From positions 58,861 to 122,860 of IMG/VR virus record IMGVR_UViG_3300042308_001616: a stretch of 64,000 bases of DNA; one strand, written 5' to 3'. This DNA is from a virus. The notes beneath the pieces were generated by a model. The model made no database searches. It was not told the origin of the DNA and was given only the letters and a program-made list of their open reading frames with translations. Made by a program: the position numbers and the translations under genes. Within the stretch, counting starts at the first letter, position 1. Each line of letters starts with the position of its first letter. Below are positions 3,465-27,660 of the stretch, in pieces.

Positions 3465-4247
3465 ATGGATCAAACAATGTATCAACCAAGTGAGGGGATT
3501 AAGTTCACCTACATCATAGCATACAGACATAGCTTAGACAGATACCTTAATTTAAAAAGAGTTTTAGATTGGGTAAATGGTTTCAGTGGTTCTGAAGTTA
3601 TTGTTGTTGAGCAAGACACACACTCCAAAATATCACATCTTAATTTACCATGTAGAGTTATATTTACGAAATCTGATATACCTTTCAATAAATCAAACGC
3701 ATTCAACGTAGGTGTAAAAGCATCACGTGCTAATATAGTTGTGTTCGGTGATTCTGATTTGATAATGAAACCAGATGAATTCATCGATGCACTCAATGAT
3801 GTCCAGAATTACGAGATGGTGAATCCTTACCATTCAGTTATAGACCTTACTGCACAAGAATCTATGCAAGATCTTTCTAATATGGTAAGAATTGATCGAC
3901 CAGGACGTGGTGAAACTGATATACAGAAGGTTCCTTTGTGTGGTGGTATTTGTATATTCCGAAAAGATGCCATACTAAAAATTGGAGCATGGTGTGAAGA
4001 CTTTATCGGGTGGGGTGGAGAAGATGATTTCCAATCAGTTAAGGTAAAGAATTTCTTAAGTTGGGTTGAAAGACCAAATAGATGTTACCACCTTTTTCAT
4101 GAAAGGACTGCACCGGATATGAAATGGTATCAAAGAAACCTTCAGTTATTACAAAAATTGGGATCTCTTTCTAAAGAGGATTTACAAAGACATATAATGA
4201 CAAGTGCACCTAAGATTGGTTTAAAAAACAAATATGACAATTTCTGA
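3465..4247 (+). CDS. Glycosyltransferase (GT2/GT-A-like with galactosyltransferase-type C-terminal motif)
   Basis: DxD-like VFGDSDL and the hallmark FIGWGGEDDF motif (Glyco_transf_7C-like GWGGEDDD). Confidence 0.55.
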   Translation: MDQTMYQPSEGIKFTYIIAYRHSLDRYLNLKRVLDWVNGFSGSEVIVVEQDTHSKISHLNLPCRVIFTKSDIPFNKSNAFNVGVKASRANIVVFGDSDLIMKPDEFIDALNDVQNYEMVNPYHSVIDLTAQESMQDLSNMVRIDRPGRGETDIQKVPLCGGICIFRKDAILKIGAWCEDFIGWGGEDDFQSVKVKNFLSWVERPNRCYHLFHERTAPDMKWYQRNLQLLQKLGSLSKEDLQRHIMTSAPKIGLKNKYDNF

Positions 4248-8402: not shown

Positions 8403-8430
8403 CTTTGATTTATGTTTTTTATCAGATTAG

Positions 8431-8446
8431 GTTATATATAAAAAAC
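8431..8446 (+). promoter_or_regulatory. Promoter-like motif GGTTATATATAAAAAACC upstream of the GT4/GT9 glycosyltransferase
   Basis: Member of the recurrent AATATATAA / TTATATATAA family ~20 nt before the ATG. Confidence 0.4.
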
Positions 8447-8467
8447 CATCCATCAAATGTTTATATA

Positions 8468-10635: not shown

Positions 10636-11409
10636 CTATTTTCTTACCTTTACACTTACGCCTGTTTTAGAAGTATTCTTTCTCACTTTCTGGTTTTTAC
10701 CTTCGTTTATATTGACGGTTACCTTTTTAGACGCCTTCACAACGAATTTGTCTTCCCATGGTGTGAATAGTGTTCCATCCGCATTTACTTCGAGACGTAT
10801 ATTACCCTTAGCACCCTCGTTTAGTATACTCAGTTTCTTCATTGGTATTACACACTGTCCGTTTTTGATTTCACCGACAAACATAAGTGTCCACTCATCA
10901 CTCTCAACTATAAGTCTAACCTCTGTGTCAGATTGGTTCACACCCTCTACTGCGATATCACATCGGAAGTCTTCTGCTTTGTCTTTGTATAATTTATAAT
11001 ATTCATCAGTTTCGTTACTTTCGTTGTGACCGAAATCGAAGTGATTATCTTTTTCATAATCTTCTTCACTTTCACCAGTAGCAAGTCCGTTCATATACAC
11101 AGAGAACTGATTTATATACTCAGTTGTGTCCTTAGTATTATTGTATGTTTCTGATTTCTCAAAATCTTCAATGTTATTCATCACTGCATCGCCGTATGAA
11201 TCTCTCATAGAATCCGCAACTGCATCGTAATCCACACCATCAACGTTATTATTAACGATATAAGGATTCAATGAATGATCAATATGCTCGTCATCGTCTT
11301 CACTCTCTGACTCATTTATAATACCTTCTTTTATAAGGTTAGACTTCATTTTTGTCAATTTTTCAACATCTATAAAGTCTTCAAATCTGAATATGTCTTT
11401 TTCTTCCAT
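10636..11409 (-). CDS. Hypothetical acidic protein (257 aa), possible virion component
   Basis: ORF; acidic N-terminal half, beta-rich basic C-terminus. Confidence 0.45.
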   Translation of the reverse strand: MEEKDIFRFEDFIDVEKLTKMKSNLIKEGIINESESEDDDEHIDHSLNPYIVNNNVDGVDYDAVADSMRDSYGDAVMNNIEDFEKSETYNNTKDTTEYINQFSVYMNGLATGESEEDYEKDNHFDFGHNESNETDEYYKLYKDKAEDFRCDIAVEGVNQSDTEVRLIVESDEWTLMFVGEIKNGQCVIPMKKLSILNEGAKGNIRLEVNADGTLFTPWEDKFVVKASKKVTVNINEGKNQKVRKNTSKTGVSVKVRK

Positions 11410-11425
11410 AATTTATATATTTTTT

Positions 11426-11815
11426 TTAAAAATCAATTTTTACACTCACTTCATTTATGAATCGAGTGAATTCGTTTACGGTAACCTTAATTTCTTTTGT
11501 AGGTTCCTTTATTACGTCGTAGTCAACTCCTCTAACACGACAATATAACTTTATAATTTTCTTTGTATTTTCTTCACCAATGTCTTTTGACATCTGCATC
11601 CATGGATTTCCCTTTTCATATTCCCCTCTGTATGCACCACCTCCGTGTCTAATACTTTTTATTTCGAGTAATATGAAGACTTCGTCCCATGTTAGATCAA
11701 CGTTTTCCCATTTCAGGGTAACTTCTTCCCACTTTAGGTATTTTTTACCAGCAGAAACCTCGTCGTTTGTCCAATTTAGGTCTGTGTTTAGTAGGTTGGA
11801 ATGTATTAGAGGCAC
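11426..11815 (-). CDS. Hypothetical protein (129 aa)
   Basis: ORF with a promoter-like motif at 11831-11848. Confidence 0.45.
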   Translation of the reverse strand: MPLIHSNLLNTDLNWTNDEVSAGKKYLKWEEVTLKWENVDLTWDEVFILLEIKSIRHGGGAYRGEYEKGNPWMQMSKDIGEENTKKIIKLYCRVRGVDYDVIKEPTKEIKVTVNEFTRFINEVSVKIDF

Positions 11816-11882
11816 GTTTATTCTTTTTTGTCTTATATATTATTAAAACGTGGTTGGACTCATGATAGTTAATATATAAAAC

Positions 11883-14800
11883 ATGAGTTATAATCTGACA
11901 GGCGTCACGGTCTCGGGTTCCTACGGGAGATTGGTACAAGTTATACATGGTTCGCCAGACACTTACTATGATGGGTTTGGAAACCTTTTGAACCTTGGAC
12001 CGGGAACTGCATCTGTTGGACCTCAGGGACCTACAGGACCACAGGGACTTTCTGTCAATTGGATGGGACCATGGGATTCAATGATGAATTACTTTACATA
12101 TGATATGGTTTCATATGATGGTAATTCGTATATCTACATAAGTAATACACCAGGTTCTTCTATTACAACGCCTGACTCGGATCCATCTAAGTGGGATATA
12201 ATGACACAAAATATAAAAGGTGCCACTGGTTCTATTGGTGCCACTGGTTCAACCGGTTCTTCCGGTTCATCAGGAACTTCTGGTTCATCTGGTGAAAGTG
12301 GATCCTCTGGAACTTCTGGTTCATCTGGAATTAGTGGGTCATCAGGAACTTCTGGTTCATCTGGAATTAGTGGGTCGTCTGGAACTTCTGGGTCGTCCGG
12401 AATTAGTGGATCATCCGGAACTTCTGGTATAAATGGTGCGACCGGCCCAGGATTTGCAGGAATATCAGCATATATACACGTAACATCAACATATTCAATA
12501 ACTACAAATGATTATTATATAGATGCAAATGGTAGTTTTGATGTTATTTTACCTCTTGGTGTACAGGGTAGATCATATGCTATTAAAAATACAGGAACGG
12601 GTGTTATCACAGTAAAAGGCACAGCATCTCAGTTAATTGACAAACTTCCTTCTTATAATTTGGCATTCTATGATACACTAATAGTAGAATCAGACGGATC
12701 CAACTGGTTAGTTCAAAACACACAAACAAAAACATTTATTAGAGTTTATAACAACACCGGATCTATTATACCAAAAGGAACTGCTCTTAAAATACAATCA
12801 ACATATAATGGTATTCCGAGTGTTTCATTACCATTAGCAAGTTTACATTCAACAAATCAACAAGTAATAGGTTTGGCCTATATTGATATACCGAACGAGT
12901 CGGAGGGTATTGCTATATCAGGTGGTATTTTATCAGGTCTTAATTTATCATCATATTCAGTTGGAGATATTCTTTACTTATCTGATACGATAGCAGGTGG
13001 ATTTGTAAACTCAACAGACTCATTACAATTTTCATCAAGAACAAATCAAATTGGATATGTTACCAGTACAAGTTCTACAATAGGAACTATTCAGGTTGAG
13101 ATTAACAACGAAGATATAAATCTTACTTTAACAGACATTGAAAGAAATATATTGGAGGGAAATGTTATCTCAACTGGTGTTTATCATTATTTAGGAATGA
13201 CTAAAACTAGTTCGATTACTTTCACAGTTGCCAGTGCTTCTGGTTGGATTGTAAAGAATACCGGGGAATTAGCAACTAAACCTGATGTACAAAATGTTAT
13301 TTATGGTGGAACTACGAGTATTACAACACCATACCTAAATAGTGCAGATTCTACATATGTTTTATTAACAGCATCATCATCATTGATGCTACAATCAACA
13401 TTTCCATCACCACAACAGAGGCGAGAGAATATATTTTTGGGTAAAGTGGTTCACCCTGACAGACAAACAATACTAAACGTAAACAACACGGTTGATTACG
13501 ACGTATCACCGATGTCATCACTAAGAGATTTATGGACACCATTAAAACTTGTCAATCAGGGTATAATACCATCGGCACATAGTACGACATTAGAATTCAA
13601 TACATCAGCAGGAACTCTCTGGGGTAACGGAATTGGATGGACAACAAACGAACTAAATCCAAATAGTGTGTTAATTGGTGGTCAATCACCTGTCACTTTC
13701 CAATATAGGACACAGATGGGTGGATCCTTTTCCAACACAACGCTTATTGACCCCTCACACTACGATAACGCCGGCACTGTTACACTGGTTGGTGGGGGTA
13801 ACGGTTCTTCAACAAATCAGAGAATATATTTGTTCCCAACAGGACTTATAAGAGTTCAATATGGACAAACCGTATACGGAACATTATCCGAGGCAATTAC
13901 CGGAACACAGGAAGAACTTTTCACCGAATTCGTCAACAACAGAGATAATGGTATTTTGATAGGAATACTATCTATCAATAAGAATGCAACAAACTTATCC
14001 AATCCATTACAAGCAAGATTCAACTTTGTTTCTAAATTTGGAGAAATACTCGGTGGTTCTGGTGGTATTTCTACAACAACTCTACAACAAGCATATGATA
14101 ACTCATCAACACCAGAAATAGTTACTAATACCAGTCTGGGTGCAGTTTCTTTCAAAAGAGGAAGTGCGTCGGATACAGATAATGTGATTGAAGTATTGAG
14201 TGGTAACGGTTCTAATGGTGTAACGTTTAGTGTAACGGGACAAGGAAGAACGAATACAAATACTCTCACAATACACGGTATTGGTGCCACTGCCGGACTT
14301 ACCAATTATGTAGTTGTTGATAATTCGGGAAATACATACTACCAAACAGGGACGATTGGGAGTGGTAGTAATGGAAGTTCTGGTAGTAGTGGTGTGAGTG
14401 GAAGTAGTGGGACGAGTGGAAGTAGTGGAACAAGTGGTGTAAATGGTGCAGGTGGTACACTCGGATATTATGGTTCATTCTATGACACATCCAACCAGTT
14501 CAATTTGACTGCAAGTGTTCCTATGGCGATGACCATAAACTCACAATATGAGGCAAATGGTGTATCGATAGTAGATGGTTCAAAGATGACTTTCACACAT
14601 CCAGGAACTTACAACTTACAATTTTCAACAGTATTCAATAAATCAAATTCGAATTCGGGTTCAGTGGATATATGGTTTGCTAGAAATGGAGATTATATAA
14701 CAAACTCAAATACACTTTTCTATGCAGCAGGCCAGGCAACATCTATTGCGGCATGGAATTATATGACAACACTCAATGCCAATGATTATATACAACTTTA

Positions 14801-15464
14801 TTGGCAGTCAAATGACACAAGTATATCAATACAATCAACTGGCACACAATCTAATCCAGATAGACCAGCAGTTCCGTCAATAATACTAACTGCACAACAG
14901 GTTATGTACACACAATTGGGTGCAACTGGTAATTCTGGATCTTCGGGTACATCTGGTTCATCAGGAACTTCTGGTTCGTCCGGTAGTTCAGGTTCATCCG
15001 GTTCATCAGGAAGTTCAGGTTCGAGTGGTTCGTCAGGAACGTCTGGTCTTCTATTATTGAATGGGTCGACCGATAATGGAATAATAACACTAAACGGGTC
15101 AGTACCAAATGCAACTGTCGAAACAAATCTAACATTTGACGGAAACACATTACGTGCAAATGCAAATGCAACAACTGTTCCACTTATAATTGCATCCGGA
15201 TCGTCTACACAGGATCTCGTGAGGATAACACAAACAGGAACAGGAAACGCATTCGTCGTAGAAGATAGTTCGAATCCGGATTCAACACCATTCGTTATAA
15301 GTAATACCGGAAATGTTGGTATCGGGACGGCATCACCAACCGACAATTTATCAGTAGCAGGAAATGTTAAAATAACCGGAACTATGAGTGGTTCGAGTAA
15401 CAATACAATACTTACGGACACACTCATACAAGCAGGCTTATTATACCTTTCTAACAACTGTTAA
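11883..15464 (+). CDS. Collagen-like repeat fibre protein 1 (1193 aa; tail fibre / fibril)
   Basis: Three Gly-X-Y tracts (mostly GSS/GTS/GIS/GES triplets) at about 12231-12420, 14349-14440 and 14943-15070. The N-terminal motif GSYGRLVQV..G..YYDGFGNLL and the C-terminal module (ITQTGTGNAFVVEDSSNPDSTPFVISNTGNVGIGT...LLYLSNNC) are both shared with the downstream giant gene. Confidence 0.8.
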   Translation: MSYNLTGVTVSGSYGRLVQVIHGSPDTYYDGFGNLLNLGPGTASVGPQGPTGPQGLSVNWMGPWDSMMNYFTYDMVSYDGNSYIYISNTPGSSITTPDSDPSKWDIMTQNIKGATGSIGATGSTGSSGSSGTSGSSGESGSSGTSGSSGISGSSGTSGSSGISGSSGTSGSSGISGSSGTSGINGATGPGFAGISAYIHVTSTYSITTNDYYIDANGSFDVILPLGVQGRSYAIKNTGTGVITVKGTASQLIDKLPSYNLAFYDTLIVESDGSNWLVQNTQTKTFIRVYNNTGSIIPKGTALKIQSTYNGIPSVSLPLASLHSTNQQVIGLAYIDIPNESEGIAISGGILSGLNLSSYSVGDILYLSDTIAGGFVNSTDSLQFSSRTNQIGYVTSTSSTIGTIQVEINNEDINLTLTDIERNILEGNVISTGVYHYLGMTKTSSITFTVASASGWIVKNTGELATKPDVQNVIYGGTTSITTPYLNSADSTYVLLTASSSLMLQSTFPSPQQRRENIFLGKVVHPDRQTILNVNNTVDYDVSPMSSLRDLWTPLKLVNQGIIPSAHSTTLEFNTSAGTLWGNGIGWTTNELNPNSVLIGGQSPVTFQYRTQMGGSFSNTTLIDPSHYDNAGTVTLVGGGNGSSTNQRIYLFPTGLIRVQYGQTVYGTLSEAITGTQEELFTEFVNNRDNGILIGILSINKNATNLSNPLQARFNFVSKFGEILGGSGGISTTTLQQAYDNSSTPEIVTNTSLGAVSFKRGSASDTDNVIEVLSGNGSNGVTFSVTGQGRTNTNTLTIHGIGATAGLTNYVVVDNSGNTYYQTGTIGSGSNGSSGSSGVSGSSGTSGSSGTSGVNGAGGTLGYYGSFYDTSNQFNLTASVPMAMTINSQYEANGVSIVDGSKMTFTHPGTYNLQFSTVFNKSNSNSGSVDIWFARNGDYITNSNTLFYAAGQATSIAAWNYMTTLNANDYIQLYWQSNDTSISIQSTGTQSNPDRPAVPSIILTAQQVMYTQLGATGNSGSSGTSGSSGTSGSSGSSGSSGSSGSSGSSGSSGTSGLLLLNGSTDNGIITLNGSVPNATVETNLTFDGNTLRANANATTVPLIIASGSSTQDLVRITQTGTGNAFVVEDSSNPDSTPFVISNTGNVGIGTASPTDNLSVAGNVKITGTMSGSSNNTILTDTLIQAGLLYLSNNC

Positions 15465-15511
15465 GGTGTTAGTCCATTTTAATATATACCCAAAAGAAAA
15501 AGGTAAACCTT

Positions 15512-18500
15512 TTGGCTAGAAATCCTAAATACCAGATACGTAACCTCTCTACTGACGGTTATGGAAGATTAGTACAAGTTGTAAATGGAGTTTATTACGA
15601 TGGATTTGGTAATATTTTAAGTATTGGTAGTGTTGGTAGTTCAGGAATCATTGGCGGTTCGTCGGGAACATCGGGTTTAAGTGGAAACTCTGGGTCATCG
15701 GGTTCATCCGGAACATCAGGGCTAAGTGGAAACTCTGGGTCATCCGGAACATCGGGTTCTTCTGGATACTCAGGAACATCAGGTTCAAGTGGAACGAGTG
15801 GTGTTTCGGATAAGTATAAGACTACAACGGTTCACACAATGCCAGTTCCGAGTGTGGATGACATTATATTATTAGAATCTCTTGATACAGGTCTTGCATA
15901 CACAGTAGGACAATCAATAATATTGGCGGAATCTGCGTACGATTATCTGGAAGGTATTGTTCAAAGTTATAGTCCAATAACGGGTGATATGTACGTTATT
16001 GTCAAATATGTCGTTGGTTCGCCTGATGGGCCAGATTTTACGATAAATATTGATGGAACAACTGGGTCATCCGGAACATCTGGGTCATCCGGAATTAGTG
16101 GTTCATCCGGATCTTCCGGAACACGTGGTAGTTCAGGTTCGTCCGGTTCTTCTGGTATTTCCGGTTCGTCCGGAACTTCGGGGTCTTCCGGAGAAAGTGG
16201 TTCTTCTGGTATTTCCGGTTCTTCTGGTATTTCCGGTTCGTCCGGAACTTCGGGGTCTTCCGGAGAAAGTGGTTCTTCTGGTATTTCCGGTTCTTCTGGA
16301 ACTTCAGGTTCGTCAGGAGAAAGTGGTTCCTCTGGAACTTCTGGGTCTTCCGGTTCTTCTGGAGCTTCTGGAACTTCAGGTTCGTCAGGAGAAAGTGGTT
16401 CCTCTGGAACTTCTGGGTCTTCCGGTTCTTCTGGAGCTTCTGGAACTTCTGGGTCATCAGGAACGTCCGGTTCTTCTGGGTCATCAGGTTCATCAGGAAC
16501 TTCTGGGTCATCTGGTGAAAGTGGATCATCCGGAACTTCTGGTTCATCCGGAACTTCTGGTTCTTCTGGATCCAGTGGAACAGGATTTGACACAATTTCA
16601 AATCCATCTGATAACAGATTATTGACATCGGATGGAACTACCAACGCAGCGGTTGCTGAAAGTAATCTAACATTTGATGGTAGTTTGTTAACAATGATTG
16701 GTTCTTCCAATTTTGGAACATCTTCTGGAACACAAAATCTATATGGTAGTGTAATTTCCAATGATAGTTTCTCCATTGGGACACAACAATTTTTCCCACA
16801 AGGTAATAACGGATTTTCAGTCAATGAAAACTTTGACGCCAGTAATAGCACATCTCAAACGGCTTATCATTTTACATCTGGCTCAAACACAAAAAATATA
16901 GTATTTACTTTAGCAAAAACCGGAGAATATACGACAGTTTTTGGTACAGATGGTAGTTCAACTTCCAATAAATTTGTAATAGGCTCAGAAACATCGAATA
17001 CCGTTTTTCAATTCAAAAGTGGATTGGGAATACAACCAATTAACTTAGACGGCGGTTCTGTGATGTTTGAGGTGGCTACAAATTCATTATTTGCACCAAA
17101 TATACCATCCGGTACAACCGAGACGGATATATTAGTCAGAGATGGTAGTGGTTATATTACATACAGAAGTGATTTAAGTTTATCAGGAACGTCTGGGTCT
17201 TCCGGTAGTGCAGGTTCATCAGGAACATCCGGTTCTTCTGGGTCTTCCGGTTCATCTGGATCATCAGGAACATCAGGAACATCAGGAACGTCTGGGTCTT
17301 CCGGTTCATCTGGATCATCAGGTTCTTCCGGAACATCAGGAACGTCTGGGTCTTCCGGTAGTGCAGGTTCATCAGGAACATCCGGTTCATCTGGATCATC
17401 AGGTTCTTCCGGAACATCAGGAACGTCTGGGTCTTCTGGGTCTTCCGGTTCATCTGGAACATCAGGTTCATCTGGAACGTCTGGTTCTTCTGGGTCTTCC
17501 GGTTCATCAGGAACGTCCGGTTCTTCTGGGTCTTCCGGTTCTTCTGGAACATCAGGTTCATCAGGAACGTCTGGTTCTTCCGGTTCATCTGGAACGTCTG
17601 GTTCTTCTGGGTCTTCCGGTTCATCAGGAACGTCCGGTTCATCAGGAACGTCTGGGTCTTCCGGTTCTTCTGGAACATCAGGTTCTTCTGGTTCATCTGG
17701 AACTTCTGGGTCTTCCGGTAGTGCAGGTTCATCAGGAACGTCTGGGTCTTCCGGTTCATCAGGAACATCTGGTTCGTCTGGATCAACAGGTTCGTCTGGG
17801 TCATCAGGATCAGCAGGAAGTTCAGGTTCTACCGGGTCTTCGGGAACGTCAGGAAGTTCAGGTTCATCAGGAACAAGAGGTTCGTCTGGGTCATCAGGTT
17901 CTACCGGATCTTCGGGGTCTTCTGGATCAGCAGGAACATCAGGATCTTCCGGTACATCTGGTTCGTCTGGGTCAGCAGGAACATCTGGTTCGTCTGGGTC
18001 AGCAGGAACATCTGGTTCGTCTGGGTCTTCCGGTACATCAGGTTCGACAGGATCATCCGGAACAAGTGGTGCACAAGGACCACAGGGTATATCCGCAGGT
18101 CAGATATACTATTTCAATATGTCTATGACAGCTTCTGTAAATGGATATAGGTCGCTTTCAACAACACCACTTCCAAATGGTGGCACATATTCAATAGAAA
18201 CACTTACGGGGAATGAGTCAGGACATTTAGTAGAGACTTTTATGACAGATCCATTAGGATTTTCTATCATTCCTGGTGGAACACAAAGGTTTCACTTACA
18301 TTTTTTAAAGGGTGCGGTTGGTGATGATATAGAGGCTTATGTGAGTATAAGACTTAGTGATAGTGTAGGTGTTCCTATTGGACCTACGTTATCAAGCAAC
18401 AAACAATACATTGGATGGAATGACTCAACAACTAATGTAGAGGTACTAACCGATTTAACACTTCCAACGACCGGAATAGATCCAACCAACAGAATGCTTG

Positions 18501-21500
18501 TAAGCATATATTTGGATAACAAGGATTCGAATTCAAGAACGGTTCAATTTCACACAGAAGGAACGGATGATTATTCTTATGTCATAACGTCTGTTGGTGT
18601 TGTGAATGGAACTTCTGGGTCTTCCGGTTCAAGTGGTTCTACAGGAACTTCCGGATCTTCTGGCTCATCCGGAACTTCTGGAACTTCTGGAACGTCTGGT
18701 TCTTCCGGTAGTGCAGGATCATCAGGTACAAGAGGTTCATCCGGGTCATCAGGAACTTCTGGTTCATCGGGAACTTCTGGTTCGTCTGGAACATCTGGAA
18801 CTTCTGGTTCGTCTGGAACATCAGGTTCGTCTGGTAGTTCTGGTTCATCAGGAAGTTCTGGTTCGTCCGGAACATCTGGAACATCTGGATCTTCTGGTTC
18901 GTCTGGAACATCTGGATCTTCTGGTAGTTCTGGTTCATCAGGAACTTCTGGTTCGTCTGGAACTTCTGGTTCGTCTGGAACTTCCGGTACTTCGGGTTCT
19001 TCCGGTACTTCGGGTTCATCTGGAACTTCCGGTACTTCGGGTTCTTCTGGAACTTCTGGAACATCTGGTTCATCAGGTACTTCGGGCTCTTCCGGAACAT
19101 CTGGTTCATCAGGTACTTCGGGCTCTTCCGGAACATCTGGTTCTTCTGGTAGTTCCGGTACGAGAGGATCATCGGGTTCTTCCGGAACATCTGGGTCATC
19201 CGGAACATCTGGGTCATCCGGAACGTCTGGTTCTTCCGGTTCATCTGGAACTTCTGGAACATCCGGTTCTTCCGGTTCGAGTGGGTCGTCCGGGTCTTCC
19301 GGGTCTTCTGGAACATCTGGTTCTTCCGGAACGTCTGGTTCTTCCGGTAGTTCCGGTACGAGAGGATCATCCGGTTCTTCTGGATCATCGGGAACTTCCG
19401 GGGTAAATGGAATCGACTCTGCGAGTTTTGAGTACACTTATAGTACAACGACCACTGCGTCGGATCCTGGATCAGGTTTCTTCAGACTAAACAACCTAAC
19501 TATGGGTAGTGCGACCTCACTTTACATAGACAGATTTGACAGAAATGGTAATAACGACTTACAAAACTTCTTCAGTTCGCTTACAAACTACGGTTCGACA
19601 AATAGACGAGGTTTCATAAAGATAACTAAACAGAACGACCTTACATGGTTTCAGACATATGAATTTAGTGCGACAACCGATAACACAGGATGGTGGACGA
19701 TTACCATAAATAACGTAATACTCGATGCCAACTTTACAAACAACGATTTGTGTTTTATCAGTTTCAATGTTTCAGGACCAACGGGAACAAGTGGGAGTTC
19801 AGGAACATCTGGTTCTTCCGGTTCATCTGGAACTTCCGGTACTTCGGGTTCTTCTGGAACTTCTGGAACATCTGGTTCATCAGGTACTTCGGGCTCTTCC
19901 GGAACATCTGGTTCATCTGGAACTTCCGGTTCTTCCGGAACGTCTGGTTCTTCTGGTAGTTCCGGTACGAGAGGATCATCGGGTTCTTCCGGAACATCTG
20001 GGTCATCAGGAACATCTGGTTCGAGTGGGTCTTCAGGAACATCTGGTTCTTCCGGTTCATCTGGAACTTCTGGTTCGAGTGGGTCTTCAGGAACATCTGG
20101 TTCTTCCGGTTCATCTGGAACTTCTGGGCCATCCGGGTCTTCTGGGTCATCTGGAACATCTGGTTCTTCCGGGTCATCTGGAACATCTGGTTCTTCCGGG
20201 TCATCTGGAACATCTGGTTCTTCCGGGTCATCTGGAACATCTGGTTCTTCCGGGTCTTCTGGGTCATCTGGAACATCTGGTTCTTCCGGGTCTTCTGGGT
20301 CATCTGGAACATCTGGTTCTTCCGGTAGTGCAGGATCATCAGGTACAAGAGGTTCATCCGGGTCATCAGGAACATCTGGTTCTTCCGGGTCTTCAGGAAC
20401 ATCTGGTTCGAGTGGTTCTTCCGGCACTTCTGGATTACTAAGTCTAACAGGTTCAACTGATAATGGTGTTATAACTCTCAATGGTTCCATTCCAAATGCT
20501 ATAGTTGAAAGTAATCTTACATTTGATGGTAGTATACTAAATGTGACTGGTCGTATTATTGCATCCGCATCAACTTCTACGGACCTTTTAAGACTAACAC
20601 AAGTAGGAACAGGAAACGCTTTTGTTGTAGAGGATAGTACGAATCCGGACATTACCCCGTTTGTTATACAGGGTGATGGAAAAGTCGCCATAGGAACTTC
20701 TTCCACCGTTGCAAACTTAGAGGTTAGAGCCAATGGTGCAAACGGTATATTACTGGGTCAAGATCTTGCAGCGAGTGGACAATCGAGTAGACTTTTCTTC
20801 AGCAACGGAACAGACGGACAACACATAGCAATACTCAATTCAAATAACGGAGGATTCGATTTCAGAACTCTATCAACTGCGAATGTTTCCACTGGAACTC
20901 AAAGGATGACAATTGCAGCAGGTGGTGATGTCTACATAGCACAGTCCCTCGGAATAAACCAACCAACACCTACTGCAAAAATACATGTGGTACCTGGTTC
21001 AACACAATCTGGTCTTATAGTTGCAGGTAATAGTGATCAAGATATGGTCAGGATAACACAGATAGGAACAGGTAACGCAATTATTGTTGAAGATAACACG
21101 AATCCAGACTCAACACCTTTCGTCGTTGATGCATCAGGAAACATAGGTGCAGGAACCGCATCACCATCAACAAAATTACACGTATTCTCTACGACGAGTG
21201 GTGCTATAAGAATAGTCGACGGAACACAGCAGAATGGATACGTACTTACATCCGATGCAAACGGGTTGGCAACATGGCAAGTATCATCTGGTGGTGGTTC
21301 ATCACTGAGTGGTACAATCAACTACGTTCCATTCTACAAAACAACCACAACACTATCATCTACGAGTTCGATACAGGTCTCTGGTGATACAGTCGGAATA
21401 GGAGTTTCATTCTCAAACACCGGTGGACCGAGTACAGACTACAGACTGCACGTAAACTATGGATCTGGTACCTACGGTGTTCTAATTGAAGGTGGTGGTG

Positions 21501-22813
21501 GAATTTCCGAAAACATACCACTTAGATTATGGGACAGTGGAACAGGTACAAACAATATAAATATTTTAGAGTTTGGACACGCAACTGCGAGTCCTAAACT
21601 ATATGTTCCGGGTGCACGTATAAAATCTACAAATCCTGGTTCCGGTGCAACAACAGGAGCTCATTTAATATTAGAAACTTCGTCAATATCAAATCCAACA
21701 TCAACAACTTGGAATACCAATCAACTCTATTTGAGAAATGATGGAAATGTAGGTATCGGAACAAATACACCAACTTCATATTTAACAATAAACACACCAG
21801 GTGGTTCATTGTATAGTGGTGGTTCTACAGGGGAACATGCAATATTAATAGGTAGTCAGTCCACTGGTTCTGTTGCTGCATATATAGGAACCGACGAAAC
21901 ACTTTCCGCGATGTACATACAATCTGGTATAAGAGGTGGTGCCGCAACTCCTATACTACTAAACGCACAGGGTGGAAACATCGGAATCGGTGTGACATCA
22001 CCTTCTGCAAAATTACACGCAGTAACTAATGTATCATCAATTCCGTTGATAATAGCATCCGGATCTACAACGGTTGATTTGGTGAGAATAACGCAGGTCG
22101 GTACAGGAAACGCTTTTGTGGTTGAAGATGCTACAAATCCAGATACCACACCATTTGCTATAACCAACACCGGAAAGGTAAAGGTTGGAACGACCGTCGA
22201 TTCAATCTATTCATCCAATATATATTCGATATCAACGACATATGGATTAGAGGCATATGGTGATTTAGCAGGAGTATACGCACGAGGATTAACTTATGGA
22301 ATTGTAGCAGAAGCGGCTACTGATGGAATGGTAGTTGCAGGTATTATGGCATCTGCAACAAACGACCAATTTATGTATGGAGTATACTACGGTGGAATGT
22401 TCTCGGCAAACTCATCAAATGGTGTCAATTACGCGGTAAGGTTACAGGATGGATCACAAGGATTGAACAAAGTTCTGGTGGACACCATAGGTGACGGATC
22501 TGCCAACTGGAAAAGTGATCTGAGTATAACATCAATCATAGCTTCTGCATCAAGTACTTCTGATATAGTAAGAATCACCCAAACCGGAACAGGAAATGCG
22601 TTAGTCGTTGAAGATTCAACAAATCCAGATGCAACACCTTTTGTTATAACATCTACGGGAAATGTTGCAATAGGAACACAATCTACAAATAACACACTAC
22701 ACGTACAGGGTTCTATGGAACTCACCGGAACATTCTCGGGTAGTAATTCTAATTTCGTAGATGCAAACCTTATAACACAAACCGTTCTACTCTATATGTC
22801 GAACAACACTTAG
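15512..22813 (+). CDS. Giant collagen-like repeat fibre protein 2 (2433 aa)
   Basis: Five Gly-Ser-Ser / Gly-Thr-Ser collagen-like tracts (about 53, 160, 315, 240 and 200 aa) separated by globular beta-rich domains. Four copies of the ITQ.GTGNA.VVED.TNPD.TPFV module. Apparent TTG start at 15512; its N-terminal motif is paralogous to fibre 1. Confidence 0.8.
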   Translation: MARNPKYQIRNLSTDGYGRLVQVVNGVYYDGFGNILSIGSVGSSGIIGGSSGTSGLSGNSGSSGSSGTSGLSGNSGSSGTSGSSGYSGTSGSSGTSGVSDKYKTTTVHTMPVPSVDDIILLESLDTGLAYTVGQSIILAESAYDYLEGIVQSYSPITGDMYVIVKYVVGSPDGPDFTINIDGTTGSSGTSGSSGISGSSGSSGTRGSSGSSGSSGISGSSGTSGSSGESGSSGISGSSGISGSSGTSGSSGESGSSGISGSSGTSGSSGESGSSGTSGSSGSSGASGTSGSSGESGSSGTSGSSGSSGASGTSGSSGTSGSSGSSGSSGTSGSSGESGSSGTSGSSGTSGSSGSSGTGFDTISNPSDNRLLTSDGTTNAAVAESNLTFDGSLLTMIGSSNFGTSSGTQNLYGSVISNDSFSIGTQQFFPQGNNGFSVNENFDASNSTSQTAYHFTSGSNTKNIVFTLAKTGEYTTVFGTDGSSTSNKFVIGSETSNTVFQFKSGLGIQPINLDGGSVMFEVATNSLFAPNIPSGTTETDILVRDGSGYITYRSDLSLSGTSGSSGSAGSSGTSGSSGSSGSSGSSGTSGTSGTSGSSGSSGSSGSSGTSGTSGSSGSAGSSGTSGSSGSSGSSGTSGTSGSSGSSGSSGTSGSSGTSGSSGSSGSSGTSGSSGSSGSSGTSGSSGTSGSSGSSGTSGSSGSSGSSGTSGSSGTSGSSGSSGTSGSSGSSGTSGSSGSAGSSGTSGSSGSSGTSGSSGSTGSSGSSGSAGSSGSTGSSGTSGSSGSSGTRGSSGSSGSTGSSGSSGSAGTSGSSGTSGSSGSAGTSGSSGSAGTSGSSGSSGTSGSTGSSGTSGAQGPQGISAGQIYYFNMSMTASVNGYRSLSTTPLPNGGTYSIETLTGNESGHLVETFMTDPLGFSIIPGGTQRFHLHFLKGAVGDDIEAYVSIRLSDSVGVPIGPTLSSNKQYIGWNDSTTNVEVLTDLTLPTTGIDPTNRMLVSIYLDNKDSNSRTVQFHTEGTDDYSYVITSVGVVNGTSGSSGSSGSTGTSGSSGSSGTSGTSGTSGSSGSAGSSGTRGSSGSSGTSGSSGTSGSSGTSGTSGSSGTSGSSGSSGSSGSSGSSGTSGTSGSSGSSGTSGSSGSSGSSGTSGSSGTSGSSGTSGTSGSSGTSGSSGTSGTSGSSGTSGTSGSSGTSGSSGTSGSSGTSGSSGTSGSSGSSGTRGSSGSSGTSGSSGTSGSSGTSGSSGSSGTSGTSGSSGSSGSSGSSGSSGTSGSSGTSGSSGSSGTRGSSGSSGSSGTSGVNGIDSASFEYTYSTTTTASDPGSGFFRLNNLTMGSATSLYIDRFDRNGNNDLQNFFSSLTNYGSTNRRGFIKITKQNDLTWFQTYEFSATTDNTGWWTITINNVILDANFTNNDLCFISFNVSGPTGTSGSSGTSGSSGSSGTSGTSGSSGTSGTSGSSGTSGSSGTSGSSGTSGSSGTSGSSGSSGTRGSSGSSGTSGSSGTSGSSGSSGTSGSSGSSGTSGSSGSSGTSGSSGSSGTSGPSGSSGSSGTSGSSGSSGTSGSSGSSGTSGSSGSSGTSGSSGSSGSSGTSGSSGSSGSSGTSGSSGSAGSSGTRGSSGSSGTSGSSGSSGTSGSSGSSGTSGLLSLTGSTDNGVITLNGSIPNAIVESNLTFDGSILNVTGRIIASASTSTDLLRLTQVGTGNAFVVEDSTNPDITPFVIQGDGKVAIGTSSTVANLEVRANGANGILLGQDLAASGQSSRLFFSNGTDGQHIAILNSNNGGFDFRTLSTANVSTGTQRMTIAAGGDVYIAQSLGINQPTPTAKIHVVPGSTQSGLIVAGNSDQDMVRITQIGTGNAIIVEDNTNPDSTPFVVDASGNIGAGTASPSTKLHVFSTTSGAIRIVDGTQQNGYVLTSDANGLATWQVSSGGGSSLSGTINYVPFYKTTTTLSSTSSIQVSGDTVGIGVSFSNTGGPSTDYRLHVNYGSGTYGVLIEGGGGISENIPLRLWDSGTGTNNINILEFGHATASPKLYVPGARIKSTNPGSGATTGAHLILETSSISNPTSTTWNTNQLYLRNDGNVGIGTNTPTSYLTINTPGGSLYSGGSTGEHAILIGSQSTGSVAAYIGTDETLSAMYIQSGIRGGAATPILLNAQGGNIGIGVTSPSAKLHAVTNVSSIPLIIASGSTTVDLVRITQVGTGNAFVVEDATNPDTTPFAITNTGKVKVGTTVDSIYSSNIYSISTTYGLEAYGDLAGVYARGLTYGIVAEAATDGMVVAGIMASATNDQFMYGVYYGGMFSANSSNGVNYAVRLQDGSQGLNKVLVDTIGDGSANWKSDLSITSIIASASSTSDIVRITQTGTGNALVVEDSTNPDATPFVITSTGNVAIGTQSTNNTLHVQGSMELTGTFSGSNSNFVDANLITQTVLLYMSNNT

Positions 22814-22832: not shown

Positions 22833-22845
22833 TAATATATAAAAG
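22833..22845 (+). promoter_or_regulatory. Promoter-like motif TAATATATAAAAG upstream of the first 140-aa paralog gene
   Basis: Motif family member 12 nt upstream of the ATG. Confidence 0.4.
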
Positions 22846-22856: not shown

Positions 22857-23291
22857 ATGGCAAACAACCTAACGTTCACAAGTGCTCCCTTCCTTCAAGG
22901 ATTAACCGCATCATCTGCGAACTCTTCCACAAACACCAGGTACACTATACTGACGGCAGATGCTACCTACGACCGTAGAATATACGGAATATCAATTGTT
23001 AATACATCCGCGGCTTCTGCACAAACAGTAACAATATGGTTAAACGATGGAACCGTTTCGTATCAAGTATTCGTACTAAACGTGCCACTAAGCTCGGGTA
23101 ACTCTACCACGGTTGCGGCAGTGGATATAATGGGCTCTGTCTACGGTGCATCAGTACTTCAAAAACAGAGAGATGCTAACGGAGTACCTTATTTCAACCT
23201 ACCTAAGACCTGGTCTGTACAATACCAGTATAACACCGCACTTTCTACGTCTGCATTGTATCTACTCGTCTTCGGAGAAACTTACGCATAA
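22857..23291 (+). CDS. Paralogous ~140-aa domain protein, copy 1 (putative virion/fibre-associated)
   Basis: Shares motifs LTFTS, DRRIYGISI, NDGT, ANSGN/SSGN and YFNLPK.WS with the next two genes. Confidence 0.55.
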   Translation: MANNLTFTSAPFLQGLTASSANSSTNTRYTILTADATYDRRIYGISIVNTSAASAQTVTIWLNDGTVSYQVFVLNVPLSSGNSTTVAAVDIMGSVYGASVLQKQRDANGVPYFNLPKTWSVQYQYNTALSTSALYLLVFGETYA

Positions 23292-23293
23292 AA

Positions 23294-23725
23294 ATGGCAG
23301 GAGCACTGACTTTTACATCCGGTGCATTTATGCAATGCACGGTTGCCACCTCATCAACAACAGGTGGTACTATATACGACATACTAACCGCAACTTCTTC
23401 TGTGGACAGGAGAGTTTATGGTTTGTCAATAGTTAGTGTCGATAATGGTGCAAACCCCGTGAAAATATATCTAAACAACGGAACAGACAATATACAGGTT
23501 TGTAACGTAAATATCGTGGCAAACTCAGGGAACGCAATAGCAACTGCACTTACTGACGTATTCTCTAATACTATGGGAGAAGCAGTACTGGCTAAAACCA
23601 GGGATGCTAACGGGGTAACCTATTTCAACCTACCAAAAAACTGGTCGATAAGAATGTCTTTTTTGACTACACACGGACTAAGTACCGAGAAGATATACAC
23701 ATTTGTGTTTGGAGAAAACTACTGA
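23294..23725 (+). CDS. Paralogous ~140-aa domain protein, copy 2
   Basis: MAGALTFTS...DRRVYGLSI...NNGT...ANSGN...YFNLPKNWS; 3-nt spacing from copy 1. Confidence 0.55.
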   Translation: MAGALTFTSGAFMQCTVATSSTTGGTIYDILTATSSVDRRVYGLSIVSVDNGANPVKIYLNNGTDNIQVCNVNIVANSGNAIATALTDVFSNTMGEAVLAKTRDANGVTYFNLPKNWSIRMSFLTTHGLSTEKIYTFVFGENY

Positions 23726-23731
23726 TAAGAA

Positions 23732-24592
23732 ATGGCTGACCAACTAACACTAACTAACACACCTCACTTATATTGTATATCACTGACATCATCAAGTTCG
23801 GCGAATACGGCATACACAATAGTACCCGCCGATTCTACCTATGATAGGAGAATATATGGACTAAGTATAACAAATACATCTGCAGTTAACCACCTAGCAT
23901 GTACACTTTGGTTGAGTAATGGTACAACAGACTTTCAGATGGGACTCGTACAGATAAACGCCAACTCAGGAAATAACATCTCAACTGGCGCAACCGACGT
24001 TTTCACAAACTCTGTTTTCTCGGGTCTTTTGACGTATGCAATGGCAGATAATATGGGTGTTTGGTATTTCAATCTACCAAAAACATGGTCATTGAAGTTC
24101 ACATACACCAACACACTATCCGTAGGAAACGCAATGACCTTTACTACATTCGGTGAAAAATATGACGGAGTTACACACCGTTTCACTTCGAAACCATTTC
24201 AACAGACTGCAACATTTTCTAATGCTACTGGAACAACCAGGAAGGATATAGTTAGTAGTGTTGCATACGACAGGAGGATTTACGGAATAGAGGCAACGAG
24301 TACCGACACAACTGCAAGAACACTGAGTATAAACTTAAATAATGGTACTACAAACTATCTAATTTACACAATATCAGTATTGGCAAACTCTGGTAACTCA
24401 ACATCGGTTTCTGCACAGGATTTATTCTATGACGCTTTCATACAAGGTTTATTTGTAAGAACCGCAGACGCAGAGGGTATATCTTACTACTTCAACCTAC
24501 CCGCAGGATGGAGCATAAATGGTTCATTCACGGTGGCAGTAACTGCAGGTTTGCAAATAAACATAAAAACAATCGGCGATACTTATGAGTAG
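23732..24592 (+). CDS. Paralogous domain protein, copies 3 and 4 fused in tandem (286 aa)
   Basis: The motif set occurs twice (DRRIYGLSI...YFNLPKTWS and DRRIYGIEA...YFNLPAGWS). Confidence 0.55.
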   Translation: MADQLTLTNTPHLYCISLTSSSSANTAYTIVPADSTYDRRIYGLSITNTSAVNHLACTLWLSNGTTDFQMGLVQINANSGNNISTGATDVFTNSVFSGLLTYAMADNMGVWYFNLPKTWSLKFTYTNTLSVGNAMTFTTFGEKYDGVTHRFTSKPFQQTATFSNATGTTRKDIVSSVAYDRRIYGIEATSTDTTARTLSINLNNGTTNYLIYTISVLANSGNSTSVSAQDLFYDAFIQGLFVRTADAEGISYYFNLPAGWSINGSFTVAVTAGLQINIKTIGDTYE

Positions 24593-27181: not shown

Positions 27182-27660
27182 GAATAATTAAATTGTTCGA
27201 AGAGTTTACCTATAATGATGTTGGTGCTGCGATAGTTTACCACGGTACACCAGACGAACACGATTTTAACAAAAGAGGATATTTAGCAAACGGAACTTTC
27301 TTCTCTACAAGTTCTAACGAAGCTAGTTCGTATGGAAAACATATCTATAAGATTGAACTCAAAAAAGATTTGAATATACTCGATACAAACAAAATTGAAG
27401 ATTGTCAGAAGATAATTGACGAATTTGGACCATTAGAAGATCCTTATTACAATACAGACGAACCCGAATACTTAGTTAACACGGCAGAGGAACTTTGGCA
27501 CCATAGTGATAGTTGGTCACCAATTGAAGCAGATGAACAACTTATGTCTTGGCTAAATGGAAATTATGATGGTGTTTGGGTCTACGAAGGTGGTACCAGA
27601 AATTTACTAATATTCAAACCAGTAGAAGAAAAGATTGATAAAACCTTTAAAGTGAAATAA
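27178..27660 (+). CDS. Hypothetical protein (160 aa); possible mini ADP-ribosyltransferase-like fold (speculative)
   Basis: AIVYHGT (H-G-[ST]), GTFFSTSSNEA (aromatic pair / STS-like), then IYKIEL or YEGG acidic candidates. Order resembles H-Y-E ARTs (PARP/DarT/Tpt1) but spacing is compact. Confidence 0.4.
   Translation: MRIIKLFEEFTYNDVGAAIVYHGTPDEHDFNKRGYLANGTFFSTSSNEASSYGKHIYKIELKKDLNILDTNKIEDCQKIIDEFGPLEDPYYNTDEPEYLVNTAEELWHHSDSWSPIEADEQLMSWLNGNYDGVWVYEGGTRNLLIFKPVEEKIDKTFKVK

Follow-up and report, generated by a model that had tools for sequence, protein, structure and literature searches.

What is built by two adjoining viral genes whose products are giant repetitive proteins of Gly, Ser and Thr, and what could stabilize such products? 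The question is raised by a locus within a 64,000-nucleotide (nt) stretch of the IMG/VR record IMGVR_UViG_3300042308_001616 (positions 58,861 to 122,860; the whole stretch is hereafter called the window), where the original prediction, made from the letters alone, had described two paralogous collagen-like fibre genes. They are designated here p1 (ORF1, fibre gene 1) and p2 (ORF2, fibre gene 2), both open reading frames (ORFs) being located on the + strand. According to our analysis, p1 and p2 are probably the structural genes of two modular homotrimeric virion fibres, which would be hyper-O-glycosylated and would belong to the tail rather than to the head. We infer the trimeric state and the triple helix, the glycosylation of both products, the identity of the sugar and the location on the virion from the features considered below. 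The two genes are organized as follows.

p1, 11883..15464, + strand: fibre gene 1, 1193 amino acids (aa), ATG start
p1 residues 1-45: N-terminal anchor (N-anchor); 46-112: GPQ mini-tract and weakly CBM5/12-like region; 113-190: tract 1
p1 residues 191-827: conserved globular core g1; 828-866: tract 2; 867-1012: domain g2; 1013-1057: tract 3
p1 residues 1058-1193: C-terminal part, containing one 45-aa module and ending in LLYLSNNC
p1 g1 region, 12453..14363, + strand: residues ~280-720 modelled confidently, beta-rich, with a beta-tulip-like domain inside
p2, 15512..22813, + strand: fibre gene 2, 2433 aa, TTG start
p2 residues 1-38: N-anchor; 52-99: tract 1; 100-181: g1; 182-358: tract 2; 359-558: g2
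p2 residues 559-861: tract 3; 862-1032: g3; 1033-1302: tract 4; 1303-1421: g4; 1422-1643: tract 5
p2, 16055-16585, 17186-18094, 18608-19417 and 19775-20440, + strand: four long Pro-free (Gly-Ser/Thr-Ser)n tracts with the nodes g2, g3 and g4 between them
p2 residues 1644-2433, 20441..22810, + strand: C-terminal fibre, 790 aa

Both ORFs proved intact, with the boundaries and lengths that had been predicted. Related contigs or loci are referred to below by L-numbers, of which L001 is an ENA scaffold, L003 a 135.8-kb IMG/VR contig and L219 a JGI contig. The TTG start proposed for p2 is supported, because the interval from the upstream stop to the conserved N-terminal motif contains no further start codon, and because the p2 orthologue in L003, which has different flanking DNA, likewise starts with TTG and the same MARNP[KR]YQI. 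The public (JGI/NCBI) gene call for p2 comprises its last 756 aa only, from an internal GTG (20543-22813, P0001), and the exact 1193-aa p1 sequence is absent from a collection of 15 billion proteins; evidently, gene callers mishandle these repeat genes.

The long uninterrupted Gly-X-Y tracts with Ser or Thr in X and Y were recovered by the triplet scan. The five tracts of p2, for which roughly 1000 aa had been anticipated, comprise 16, 59, 101, 90 and 74 triplets, i.e., 340 triplets or 1020 aa as assembled (1032 aa if a 4-triplet stub is included). In p1, tracts of 26 (residues 113-190), 13 (828-866) and 15 (1013-1057) triplets together with a short GPQGPTGPQG total 174 aa. The X position of the five p2 tracts is occupied by Ser in 200 and by Thr in 114 of the 340 triplets (92% Ser/Thr), the Y position by Ser in 311 of 340 (91%); Pro occurs three times (<1%), and charged residues are rare. 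The whole p2 contains 681 Ser and 295 Thr, and 40% of the fibre proteins is Ser and Thr. The Pfam Collagen family (PF01391) matched both proteins with E 1.3e-18 for p1 and 2.6e-133 for p2. The stabilizing composition of characterized bacterial collagens (imino acids, a charged or Thr/Gln network), in which Pro takes 19-31% of the X and Thr 32-48% of the Y positions, was not found in the p2 tracts, and their hydroxyl-rich Ser/Thr composition could support a hydration or glycan network.

At the DNA level, the 394 in-tract Gly codons (GGT 173, GGA 156, GGG 59, GGC 6) are not interrupted by a single non-Gly codon. Since their third position is mixed and the first two are invariant, purifying selection acts on Gly at every third residue. 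This periodicity is retained in orthologues with other X and Y residues, namely GTS/GTN/GIN in L003 and GAT/GSQ/GIQ in the phage genome LR756502. Tandem-repeat arrays in the tracts are mostly 63-76% matched, with periods that are all multiples of 9 bp, the longest exact repeat within 11883-22813 is 98 bp, and the tracts raise the guanine-plus-cytosine content to ~46% against a background of 34-36%. An origin of the tracts as recent slippage arrays was rejected on the grounds of their degenerate DNA identity and mixed codons, and antisense or out-of-frame ORFs of 177-360 aa in the tracts (PEEPE/PDEPE-type) were discarded as by-products of the stop-free repeat. As a separate observation, the Ser codon TCC occurs in the tracts (12219-20440) 91 times at Y and 4 times at X, and each TCC at Y creates, together with the following Gly codon (GGN), a CCGG site.

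The two proteins share their ends. The common N-terminal motif (p1 residues 14-36, p2 residues 17-36) is 70% identical, and the last ~85-100 aa are 60-61% identical, both chains ending in LLY[LM]SNN[CT]. The conserved 45-aa module (ITQxGTGNA) announced by the original prediction does exist, in four copies in p2 and one in p1 rather than in five copies in p2. The paralogy that had been proposed holds for the termini, the module and the tracts; the globular middles of p1 and p2 are unrelated, so it is limited to the shared parts. One more common element, a post-collagen motif DN..(I/L)T..G.....E(S/T)NLTFDG..L.V.G, follows tract 3 of p1 and tracts 2 and 5 of p2, with variants after tracts in L003, L085, L143 and L144, and could be a candidate registration element.

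The ~40-aa N-anchor motif also heads fibre genes of L002/L003, L005, L024, L099 and L120. In L070 a separate protein of 263 aa bears it, the next genes being one of 404 aa and a collagen-like one of 1633 aa with a different N-terminus. In LR756502, a 642-kb phage, the first 108 aa recur with 58% identity in a syntenic position, behind homologues of two window genes (257 and 129 aa, see below), and the anchor heads there a ~1477-aa fibre, in which the tracts are built of GAT/GSQ/GIQ and the globular domains are different. A weak similarity (E 1e-3 to 1e-4) connects residues 41-110 with proteins annotated as minor tail or tail fibre. The virion attachment function suggested for the N-terminus thus gains support at the sequence level, as virion-docking domains are classically recognized by a conserved N-terminus to which exchangeable distal parts are joined. 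The same layout, an N-anchor followed by exchangeable distal domains, is generic for tail fibres and tailspikes; p1 and p2 themselves gave no hit to the Peptidase_S74 intramolecular chaperone (S74). Pfam searches at E<=1 with the N-terminus and the inter-collagen domains returned sub-threshold noise only (CBM_5_12, 0.024; DUF4397, 0.055).

The fibre nature of the proteins is further indicated by the families of their globular parts. Homologues of p1 residues 191-827, with the core proper at residues ~280-760, were found in more than 280 metagenomic proteins, and relatives of this core occur at 63 IMG/VR loci on contigs of up to 434 kb, mostly with 45-83% and down to 29% identity. Nearly all of these homologues have no collagen tracts, being usually composed of a 90-330-aa N-terminal extension, a ~480-aa core and a variable C-terminus of 130-480 aa, in some of them with S74. 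Among isolated phages, tblastn revealed the annotated tail fibre of Stenotrophomonas phage DLP_6 (L065; 38%) and tailspikes of Streptomyces phages (~30%), the functions of which are known by annotation, none of them being experimentally characterized; the DLP_6 gene lies outside any obvious tail cluster. PHROG tail-fibre families also matched, including the non-collagen phrog_16641 on p1 residues 449-756. As these generic, collagen-driven tail-fibre PHROGs and phrog_16641 were the only matches, and no families of the T4 long tail fibre (gp34-37) were among the Pfam and PHROG hits of p1 and p2, the proteins are indeed atypical of T4 long tail fibres, as had been predicted. A faint hit of homologues to PF18257 (DsbG_N) was dismissed as spurious.

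The AlphaFold2 (AF2) model of p1, built on an 84-sequence alignment, is confident at residues ~280-720 (per-residue confidence, pLDDT, mostly 85-96), where it presents a beta-rich multi-domain body, and has pLDDT <50 outside this region, leaving p1 g2, the 45-aa module and the N-anchor without a fold. The beta-rich character claimed for the globular domains is therefore upheld for the p1 core; the p2 model is too poor to say. The body contains a predicted beta-tulip-like domain in an internal position, after the anchor and a collagen tract. A search of BFVD with the p1 core returned only uncharacterized proteins of uncultured phages, some labelled collagen repeat, intramolecular chaperone or 'tail fiber-like'. 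Sequence searches of PDB gave nothing significant for p1 g1, p1 g2, p2 g2 and the downstream 286-aa and 299-aa proteins.

The C-terminal fibre of p2 (residues 1644-2433) starts with the post-collagen motif (DNGVITLNG..VESNLTFDG) and consists of four 45-aa ITQxGTGNAxVVEDxTNPDxTPF modules interleaved with GN(V/I)GIGT..P..KLHV repeats. It has 558 homologues, and its sole match among solved structures is the trimeric beta-helix region of Bdellovibrio Bd2133 (PDB 8OND, E 1.7e-8), the similarity running through repeated GN(V/I/L)G(I/A/L)GT..P..KLHV motifs. Bd2133 was experimentally shown to be a flexible trimeric adhesive fibre with exchangeable tips. The AF2 monomer of p2 residues 1303-2433 has a mean pLDDT of 48.9, too poor for a fold search, which is explicable because an obligate trimer is expected. 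Both models, p1 and p2, end in a short predicted helix over LLY[LM]SNN. The p2 C-terminus had zero matches among phage records by tblastn, and the IMG/VR scan with it yielded pattern hits and zero confirmed relatives. Apparently, the p1-core family with its S74 chaperones and its tail fibre and tailspike matches, together with the match of the p2 C-terminus to Bd2133, supports the assignment of both products to fibre proteins.

The Ser/Thr-rich tracts had also been proposed as candidate substrates of O-glycosylation, and this proposal is strengthened by the enzyme encoded next to them.

GT4-BAHT gene, 8405..10588, + strand: 1.3 kb upstream of p1; N-terminal GT4 fused to C-terminal TibC-like BAHT
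BAHT domain, ORF residues 383-715, nt ~9551-10549, + strand: PDB match to TibC
Second glycosyltransferase, 3465..4247, + strand: GT2/GT7C-like, 260 aa (PF02709 E 3e-6, PF00535 E 2.6e-5), 4 kb upstream of the GT4-BAHT gene

The true start of the GT4-BAHT gene is probably the ATG at ~8474 (MKKLMIIVPHLSTGG), as follows from comparison with the L003 and L070 orthologues. Its GT4 part matches PF00534 (Glycos_transf_1, E 7e-13) and carries the EX7E motif FELNPLSLKE. The C-terminal part, recognized in Pfam weakly as GT9 (PF01075, E 3e-5), matches in PDB the TibC structures 4RAP/4RB4 with E 2.9e-57 over TibC residues 41-379 of 406, a stretch that takes in part of the N-terminal beta-barrel and the GT-B-like catalytic domain, and no other glycosyltransferase, including lipopolysaccharide heptosyltransferase, was found in PDB at E<=1. 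TibC, the autotransporter heptosyltransferase of enterotoxigenic Escherichia coli that hyper-glycosylates serines of the TibA adhesin, defines the BAHT family, the hallmarks of which are the catalytic Asp110 (the D110A variant of TibC is inactive), the Fe(Cys)4 'iron finger' (Cys339, 342, 358, 370) and the beta-hairpin thumb. Asp110 (within a GD motif) and Cys339/342/358/370 are conserved in the proteins of the window, L003 and L024, and the thumb tip Phe265-Val266 of TibC aligns to Tyr-Met, i.e., to hydrophobic yet different residues. As judged by the match to TibC, Asp110 and the four cysteines, the product of 8405-10588 is a TibC-like (BAHT) protein-serine O-glycosyltransferase fused to GT4. 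An autotransporter, the usual partner of BAHT, was not seen in the window, the linked genes being those of the collagen-like fibres. The GT2/GT7C-like gene possibly belongs to the same glycosylation set.

A glycosylation locus adjoins the fibre genes in L003, L024 and L070 as well. In L003 (2717-8340) and L024 it comprises three genes, encoding GT4 with a GT25-like part, an unknown part with an FkbM-type methyltransferase, and an unknown part with BAHT; in the window and L070 there is a single direct GT4-BAHT fusion, devoid of the middle ~1100 aa of the three-gene version. Such remodelling of the locus looks like glycan diversification between close relatives.

The association of BAHT with collagen-like genes reaches beyond these loci. 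The BAHT-like domain is rare in sequenced phages (4 of 50,697 records). The record of the cultured Microcystis phage Mel-JY01 (L066, PP395634.1) starts within a + strand ORF that spans at least 1016 aa and contains 202 triplets of GTS/GSS type, located 1.7 kb upstream of a 1226-aa 'methyltransferase FkbM' gene, the C-terminus of which is a BAHT domain. The region of this ORF (2-3052, +) is annotated as minus-strand hypothetical proteins (1-651, 739-2298), and the ORF ends in the annotated coding sequence 2519-3052; almost certainly, 2-3052 represents a + strand GTS/GSS collagen-like gene cut by the start point of the record. In LR756501 (735 kb), ~5 kb separate the BAHT match from a 699-aa ORF containing 40 triplets of S/T type.

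In IMG/VR, the BAHT-like domain was found in 266 stretches, and 80 loci were taken for the linkage count, with an ORF of at least 10 Gly-X-Y triplets within 10 kb as the criterion and loci centred on the large terminase (TerL) of related phages as the control. A collagen-like ORF was present at 38 of the 80 BAHT loci (33 of them with at least 40 triplets) vs 0 of 66 TerL loci; after dereplication at ~95% identity the counts were 26 of 54 BAHT clusters vs 0 of 35 control clusters (Fisher p 1e-7). Ser and Thr make up at least 50% of X/Y positions in 16 of the 26 positive clusters. The median gap within the pairs is 4 kb, the strand is the same in 34 of 38, and the collagen-like ORF is located upstream in 20 and downstream in 18. 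These varied arrangements and the distant cases point towards functional coupling rather than frozen synteny. The searchable literature contained no paper joining heptosyltransferase, collagen-like and phage, and the papers naming both autotransporter heptosyltransferases and bacteriophages appear, in the parts available, unrelated to phage enzymes.

Other genes were noticed in the isolated phages. In DLP_6, 2OG-Fe(II) oxygenase genes flank the fibre gene, and in DLP_6 and Mel-JY01 a large 'cytidylyltransferase-like' gene is situated a few kb from the fibre or BAHT genes. These genes could provide sugar-nucleotide supply or residue hydroxylation; no equivalent of either was found in the window by Pfam/PHROG scans.

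Taken together, these data can be explained as follows. The N-anchor of each chain would dock the fibre to the particle, globular 'beads' would alternate with tracts, and the ~100-aa C-terminal element would close each chain. Three chains would wind into collagen-type triple helices, with the globular domains as registration or nucleation nodes; every tract is followed by a globular domain, and folds of trimer type are present among these domains (the beta-tulip-like one and the Bd2133-like beta-helix). p2 would thus contain ~290 nm of triple helix in five segments (at 0.286 nm per residue) and p1 ~50 nm. The former value equals the helical length of a fibrillar collagen molecule and is about twice the T4 long tail fibre. 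In p2 the helix would pass into the Bd2133-like beta-helical distal fibre, producing a long, jointed and flexible adhesion fibre. As the tracts have neither the Pro nor the charge features of bacterial collagens, O-glycosylation is proposed as the stabilizer: the Ser/Thr hydroxyls of the tracts, exposed and numbering in the hundreds, would be O-glycosylated in the host cytoplasm with GT4-BAHT as the candidate enzyme, its BAHT domain attaching the first sugar to Ser and its GT4 domain adding or extending, and the glycans would hydrate and stabilize the helix and coat the fibre. Glycosylated Thr plays such a part in BclA and in Riftia cuticle collagen. Beads and tract lengths would be shuffled rapidly between relatives.

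Such exchange is visible around p2 g3. This domain was found at 11 metagenome loci, at five of them with 81-83% identity and at the others with 50-53% or 76%, and in 10 of 11 the Gly-X-Y tracts on its two sides vary widely in length, while the remaining contig breaks off inside the domain. L003 is fully syntenic with the window, L219 carries orthologues of p1 and p2 in tandem, and L001 is 81-90% identical in the p2 C-terminus and 98-100% in the downstream genes. Single ORFs of 199-301 triplets occur in independent assemblies (L026, L070, L080, L143), p2 being the longest member in the sample (340 triplets, 2433 aa). The tracts are not a trivial product of assembly, as their longest exact repeat measures 98 bp and orthologues were met in a large number of independent assemblies; the genes are robust, the tract lengths being given as assembled. 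ORFs of ~302-323 aa, extremely rich in Gly/Ala, were also observed near fibre genes in L070 (19931-20878), L007, L009, L012, L042, L054 and L058, with two to three copies in a row in L009 and L012; the window has none.

A number of facts weigh against the explanation given above and have to be considered along with the alternatives that they suggest. In AF2 monomers the tracts have pLDDT of ~33; the triple-helix propensity of Ser is only moderate according to host-guest data, there is no Pro or charge network in the tracts, and an unglycosylated helix of such composition might be unstable. It could be supposed, then, that the tracts are not triple helices and serve as O-glycosylated mucin-like spacers or segments of polyglycine-II or polyproline-II type, trimerization being ensured by the nodes only. 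We regard this as rather unlikely: a spacer might well have <1% Pro and almost no charges, unlike characterized bacterial collagens, be adjoined by a dedicated Ser O-glycosyltransferase and yield no structure in AF2, but it needs no strict Gly at every third position over 59-101 triplets. This periodicity persists despite mixed synonymous codons and in orthologues with other X/Y residues, all repeat periods are multiples of 9 bp, the Pfam Collagen match is strong, and related fibres carry conventional GPQ/GPT tracts at equivalent positions. As for the enzyme, the adenine-contacting Arg286 of TibC aligns to Leu in the proteins of the window, L003 and L024 (the alignment being locally uncertain), so that the donor may differ from ADP-heptose, and genes of heptose or other sugar-nucleotide synthesis were not found in the window by Pfam/PHROG scans. 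Known BAHT substrates are folded beta-helical autotransporters, not collagen, and the beta-helical C-terminal regions of the fibres, rather than the tracts, might be what the enzyme modifies. It is also conceivable, although in our opinion doubtful, that GT4-BAHT does not modify the fibres at all, its target being a host surface protein, lipopolysaccharide or another phage component and its position reflecting inherited gene order. Indeed, characterized BAHTs modify autotransporter adhesins, several kinds of target are known for phage glycosyltransferases, DNA and host serotype among them, and in about every second viral BAHT cluster a collagen-like ORF is missing within 10 kb; LR756504 (none within 20 kb of BAHT) and LR756502 are also devoid of the pairing. 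Moreover, many sampled loci belong to one phage clade, and the relatedness and synteny of the loci inflate the linkage statistic. Nevertheless, the linkage survives rearrangement (20 upstream and 18 downstream cases, varied architectures, BAHT identity of 45-64%), recurs in a cyanophage and a 735-kb phage, and is accompanied by the lack of any collagen-like ORF in the control regions and by 40% Ser+Thr in the neighbouring fibre proteins.

The location of the fibres and the length of p2 are open to objections too. In fold comparison the p1 core came closest to capsid decoration proteins, and Pfam/PHROG scans of the window ORFs (~40 besides those discussed) recognized zero sheath, tube, baseplate or sugar-nucleotide synthesis genes, none of the tail genes thus being seen near the fibre genes; among cultured relatives, none with virion proteomics was found. 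The fibres, at least p1, could accordingly be capsid fibrils, with the beta-tulip-like domain on three-fold or quasi-three-fold sites of the T4-type capsid, in the manner of gpD-like decoration proteins and of gp8.5 at the base of the phi29 head fibre, and with the collagen-like arms as 'hair'. Reports of the beta-tulip fold concern mainly capsid decoration proteins and the base of the phi29 head fibre, SPP1 gp12 is an example of a capsid binder of collagen-like type, the conservation of the p1 core (45-83% at most of the 63 loci) is unusually high for a protein that binds receptors, and the distantly related jumbo phages PTm1 and PTm5 bear head-fibre-like appendages. We still find a capsid location somewhat unlikely and a tail or baseplate location modestly probable, with the remainder left to other sites such as the neck, since the tulip-like domain is internal (after ~280 residues) rather than an N-terminal base, and since p2 has no such domain yet shares the N-anchor of p1; the core homologues, besides, often have S74 and variable C-termini, the classic layout of a tail fibre or spike, and the N-terminal region weakly matches annotated tail proteins. 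Finally, p2 may be a real gene whose length is in part an artefact, one or more tracts having been expanded, collapsed or mis-joined on assembly: the L001 scaffold starts within tract 4 and is interrupted by an N-gap in tract 5, the majority of the metagenome contigs that bear orthologues terminate in the fibre genes or close to them, and p2 is the longest member seen. Such an artefact is improbable given that the longest exact repeat, 98 bp, is below the typical read length, that the 7.3-kb frame is intact with all junctions between tracts and unique domains in frame, and that other assemblies hold single ORFs with 199-301 triplets. Hence modular, hyper-O-glycosylated trimeric fibres remain the preferred explanation for p1 and p2.

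The genome setting is consistent with a large phage. Pfam/PHROG scans recognized in the window a head and packaging core of gp23-type major capsid protein, prohead protease, gp20-type portal and T4-type large terminase; the T4-like affiliation assumed at the beginning holds for this core (gp23, gp20, TerL) and not beyond it. The capsid protein is 72-73% identical to those of two uncultured phage genomes of 642 and 635 kb, 53% identical to those of other phages of 636-735 kb and ~29% identical to those of Lak phages and Tenacibaculum phage PTm1. The LR7565xx records come from the huge phages of Al-Shayeb et al. (2020). When the flanks and the fibre region were compared with the 50,697 phage records by Megablast, zero matches and hence no near-identical sequenced phage emerged; in the public collection, the contig from which the window comes reaches a length of at least 248,751 bp. 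The genome is that of an uncultivated, distant T4-core jumbo or huge phage. The genes and elements immediately around p1 and p2 are listed below.

Divergent pair, 257 aa and 129 aa, 10636..11815, - strand: always accompany the N-anchor-bearing fibre gene
Three genes (144, 143 and 286 aa), 22857..24592, + strand: four copies of a ~143-aa domain (motifs DRRIYG.S, YFNLP..W)
TAATATATA before p1, 11870..11878, + strand: 5 nt upstream of the p1 start codon
TAATATATA before p2, 15480..15488, + strand: 24 nt upstream of the p2 TTG, with a Shine-Dalgarno-like AAAGGT in between
TAATATATA copies, + strand: 11870-11878, 15480-15488, 22833-22841, 27661-27669
TAATATATA copies, - strand: 5425-5433, 11834-11842, 45425-45433, 55074-55082 and others

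Homologues of the 257- and 129-aa genes stand immediately upstream of the anchor-bearing gene in L003, L005, L024, L070 and LR756502; the two proteins had zero matches in Pfam, PHROG and PDB. The 144-, 143- and 286-aa genes directly follow the fibre genes in the same order in L001 (98-100% identity) and L003 (62-67%) and are absent from L024, which also has neither p2 nor the LLYLSNN end. Their products, with zero family (Pfam, PHROG) or PDB matches, are possibly fibre accessory, tip or chaperone proteins. The 9-mer TAATATATA occurs in the window in 14 copies vs 1.7 expected (0 of 100 shuffles reach 14), nearly always 5-25 nt upstream of a start codon and in the gene's own orientation. It precedes p1, p2, the first downstream (144-aa) gene and the portal gene (79 nt upstream there), is found also upstream of the L003 p2 orthologue, and may be a candidate phage promoter or leader element. 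The T4 late-promoter consensus TATAAATA is not enriched in the window (9 vs 7.3 expected), so late expression cannot be argued from it.

Several further genes of the window deserve mention. The gene of a full RNase R/RNase II-type exoribonuclease (41178-43112, +; CSD2, RNB with E 1.5e-98, S1) separates those of the prohead protease and the portal and lies on the strand opposite to them. A protein with an ART-PolyVal-type ADP-ribosyltransferase domain (27178-27660, +; sub-threshold, E 1.5e-5) and a NADAR domain protein (30244-30750, -; E 1.1e-25), the genes of which are 2.6 kb apart, could act as writer and eraser of ADP-ribosylation. Directly downstream of the capsid gene lies that of a 716-aa homing/HNH endonuclease carrying DUF7487 (34492-36642, -), and mobile-element-type nucleases are found also at 56652-57548 (+) and 46366-46893 (-), being a second HNH endonuclease and a TnsA-like endonuclease.

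Several known systems resemble that of the window in part. Collagen-like tail fibres of phages and prophages (E. coli O157:H7 prophages, PMC3368898; PHROG 5073, 6320, 8745) likewise are trimeric proteins with Gly-X-Y tracts between globular domains; however, in the known ones the triplets number in the tens, Pro occupying X and Thr/Gln occupying Y, as opposed to up to 101 triplets and <1% Pro in p2. BclA of the Bacillus exosporium has a Thr-rich collagen-like region, O-glycans of which are thought to aid both hydration and stability, followed by a C-terminal trimerization domain, but it is a spore protein with Pro-containing GPT repeats and unrelated glycosylating enzymes, and no sequence match to BclA was found for the globular domains of p1 and p2. 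Bdellovibrio mosaic adhesive trimer (MAT) fibres, such as Bd2133, share GN(L/V)G(I/L)GT..P..KLHV repeats, the chimeric architecture and exchangeable tips; they are, in contrast, bacterial surface proteins without collagen tracts, and the tip of p2, which has no S74, is different. The fold predicted for p1 unites it, without sequence similarity, with beta-tulip proteins (lambda gpD, TW1 gp56, phi29 gp8.5), although tulip decoration proteins are small and stand-alone or form an N-terminal base, while the p1 domain is internal to a 1193-aa fibre; a further system close to p1 is the collagen-like capsid binder SPP1 gp12.

On the side of the enzyme, TibC/AAH with their adhesins TibA/AIDA-I are alike in the near full-length match and in the location of the enzyme beside a very Ser-rich, repetitive, adhesin-like candidate substrate; the phage enzyme differs in being phage-encoded and fused to GT4, with a collagen-like fibre as the candidate substrate. 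In mycobacteriophages, as far as their virion glycosylation (Freeman et al., 2023) is presented in the article citing it (PMC12619734), virus-encoded glycosyltransferases also act on Ser/Thr-rich or collagen-like virion surface proteins, the targets named there being the capsid and the tail-tube C-termini; the glycosylated collagen-like fibrils of mimivirus are a similar case and involve hydroxylysine. The enzyme families and substrates are others than in the window, and no BAHT was met for such systems in the searchable literature.

Since collagen-like phage tracts are well known and Pro-free S/T tracts recur in relatives, the kind of protein is not new. New are the scale (340 triplets, the longest in the sample) and the near-pure Gly/Ser/Thr composition, and above all the coupling to a TibC-family serine glycosyltransferase across many viral contigs, apparently unreported before. 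We tentatively propose, as a serious possibility falling short of a probable one, that jumbo and huge phages of the environment, joined by at least one cyanophage in culture, share widespread, undescribed 'glyco-collagen' fibres with Pro-free (Gly-Ser/Thr-Ser)n triple helices of up to ~300 nm, the stability and surface chemistry of which depend on BAHT hyper-O-glycosylation. The work also exposes a systematic failure of annotation (a fragment called for p2, p1 absent, the wrong strand in Mel-JY01), so that such proteins are under-counted.

To our knowledge, the BAHT family has so far been known only from autotransporter virulence systems of Gram-negative pathogens. If the above explanation is true, this family would shift from the niche of pathogen autotransporters to a common phage function and would offer an expressible substrate-enzyme pair. 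A collagen triple helix would then be buildable essentially from Gly, Ser and Thr, glycans taking over the stabilizing role of proline and hydroxyproline, which would bear on collagen design rules and biomaterials. For uncultivated large aquatic phages it would mean the possession of very long glycan-coated fibres, which may serve host recognition, adhesion to polysaccharide matrices or shielding.

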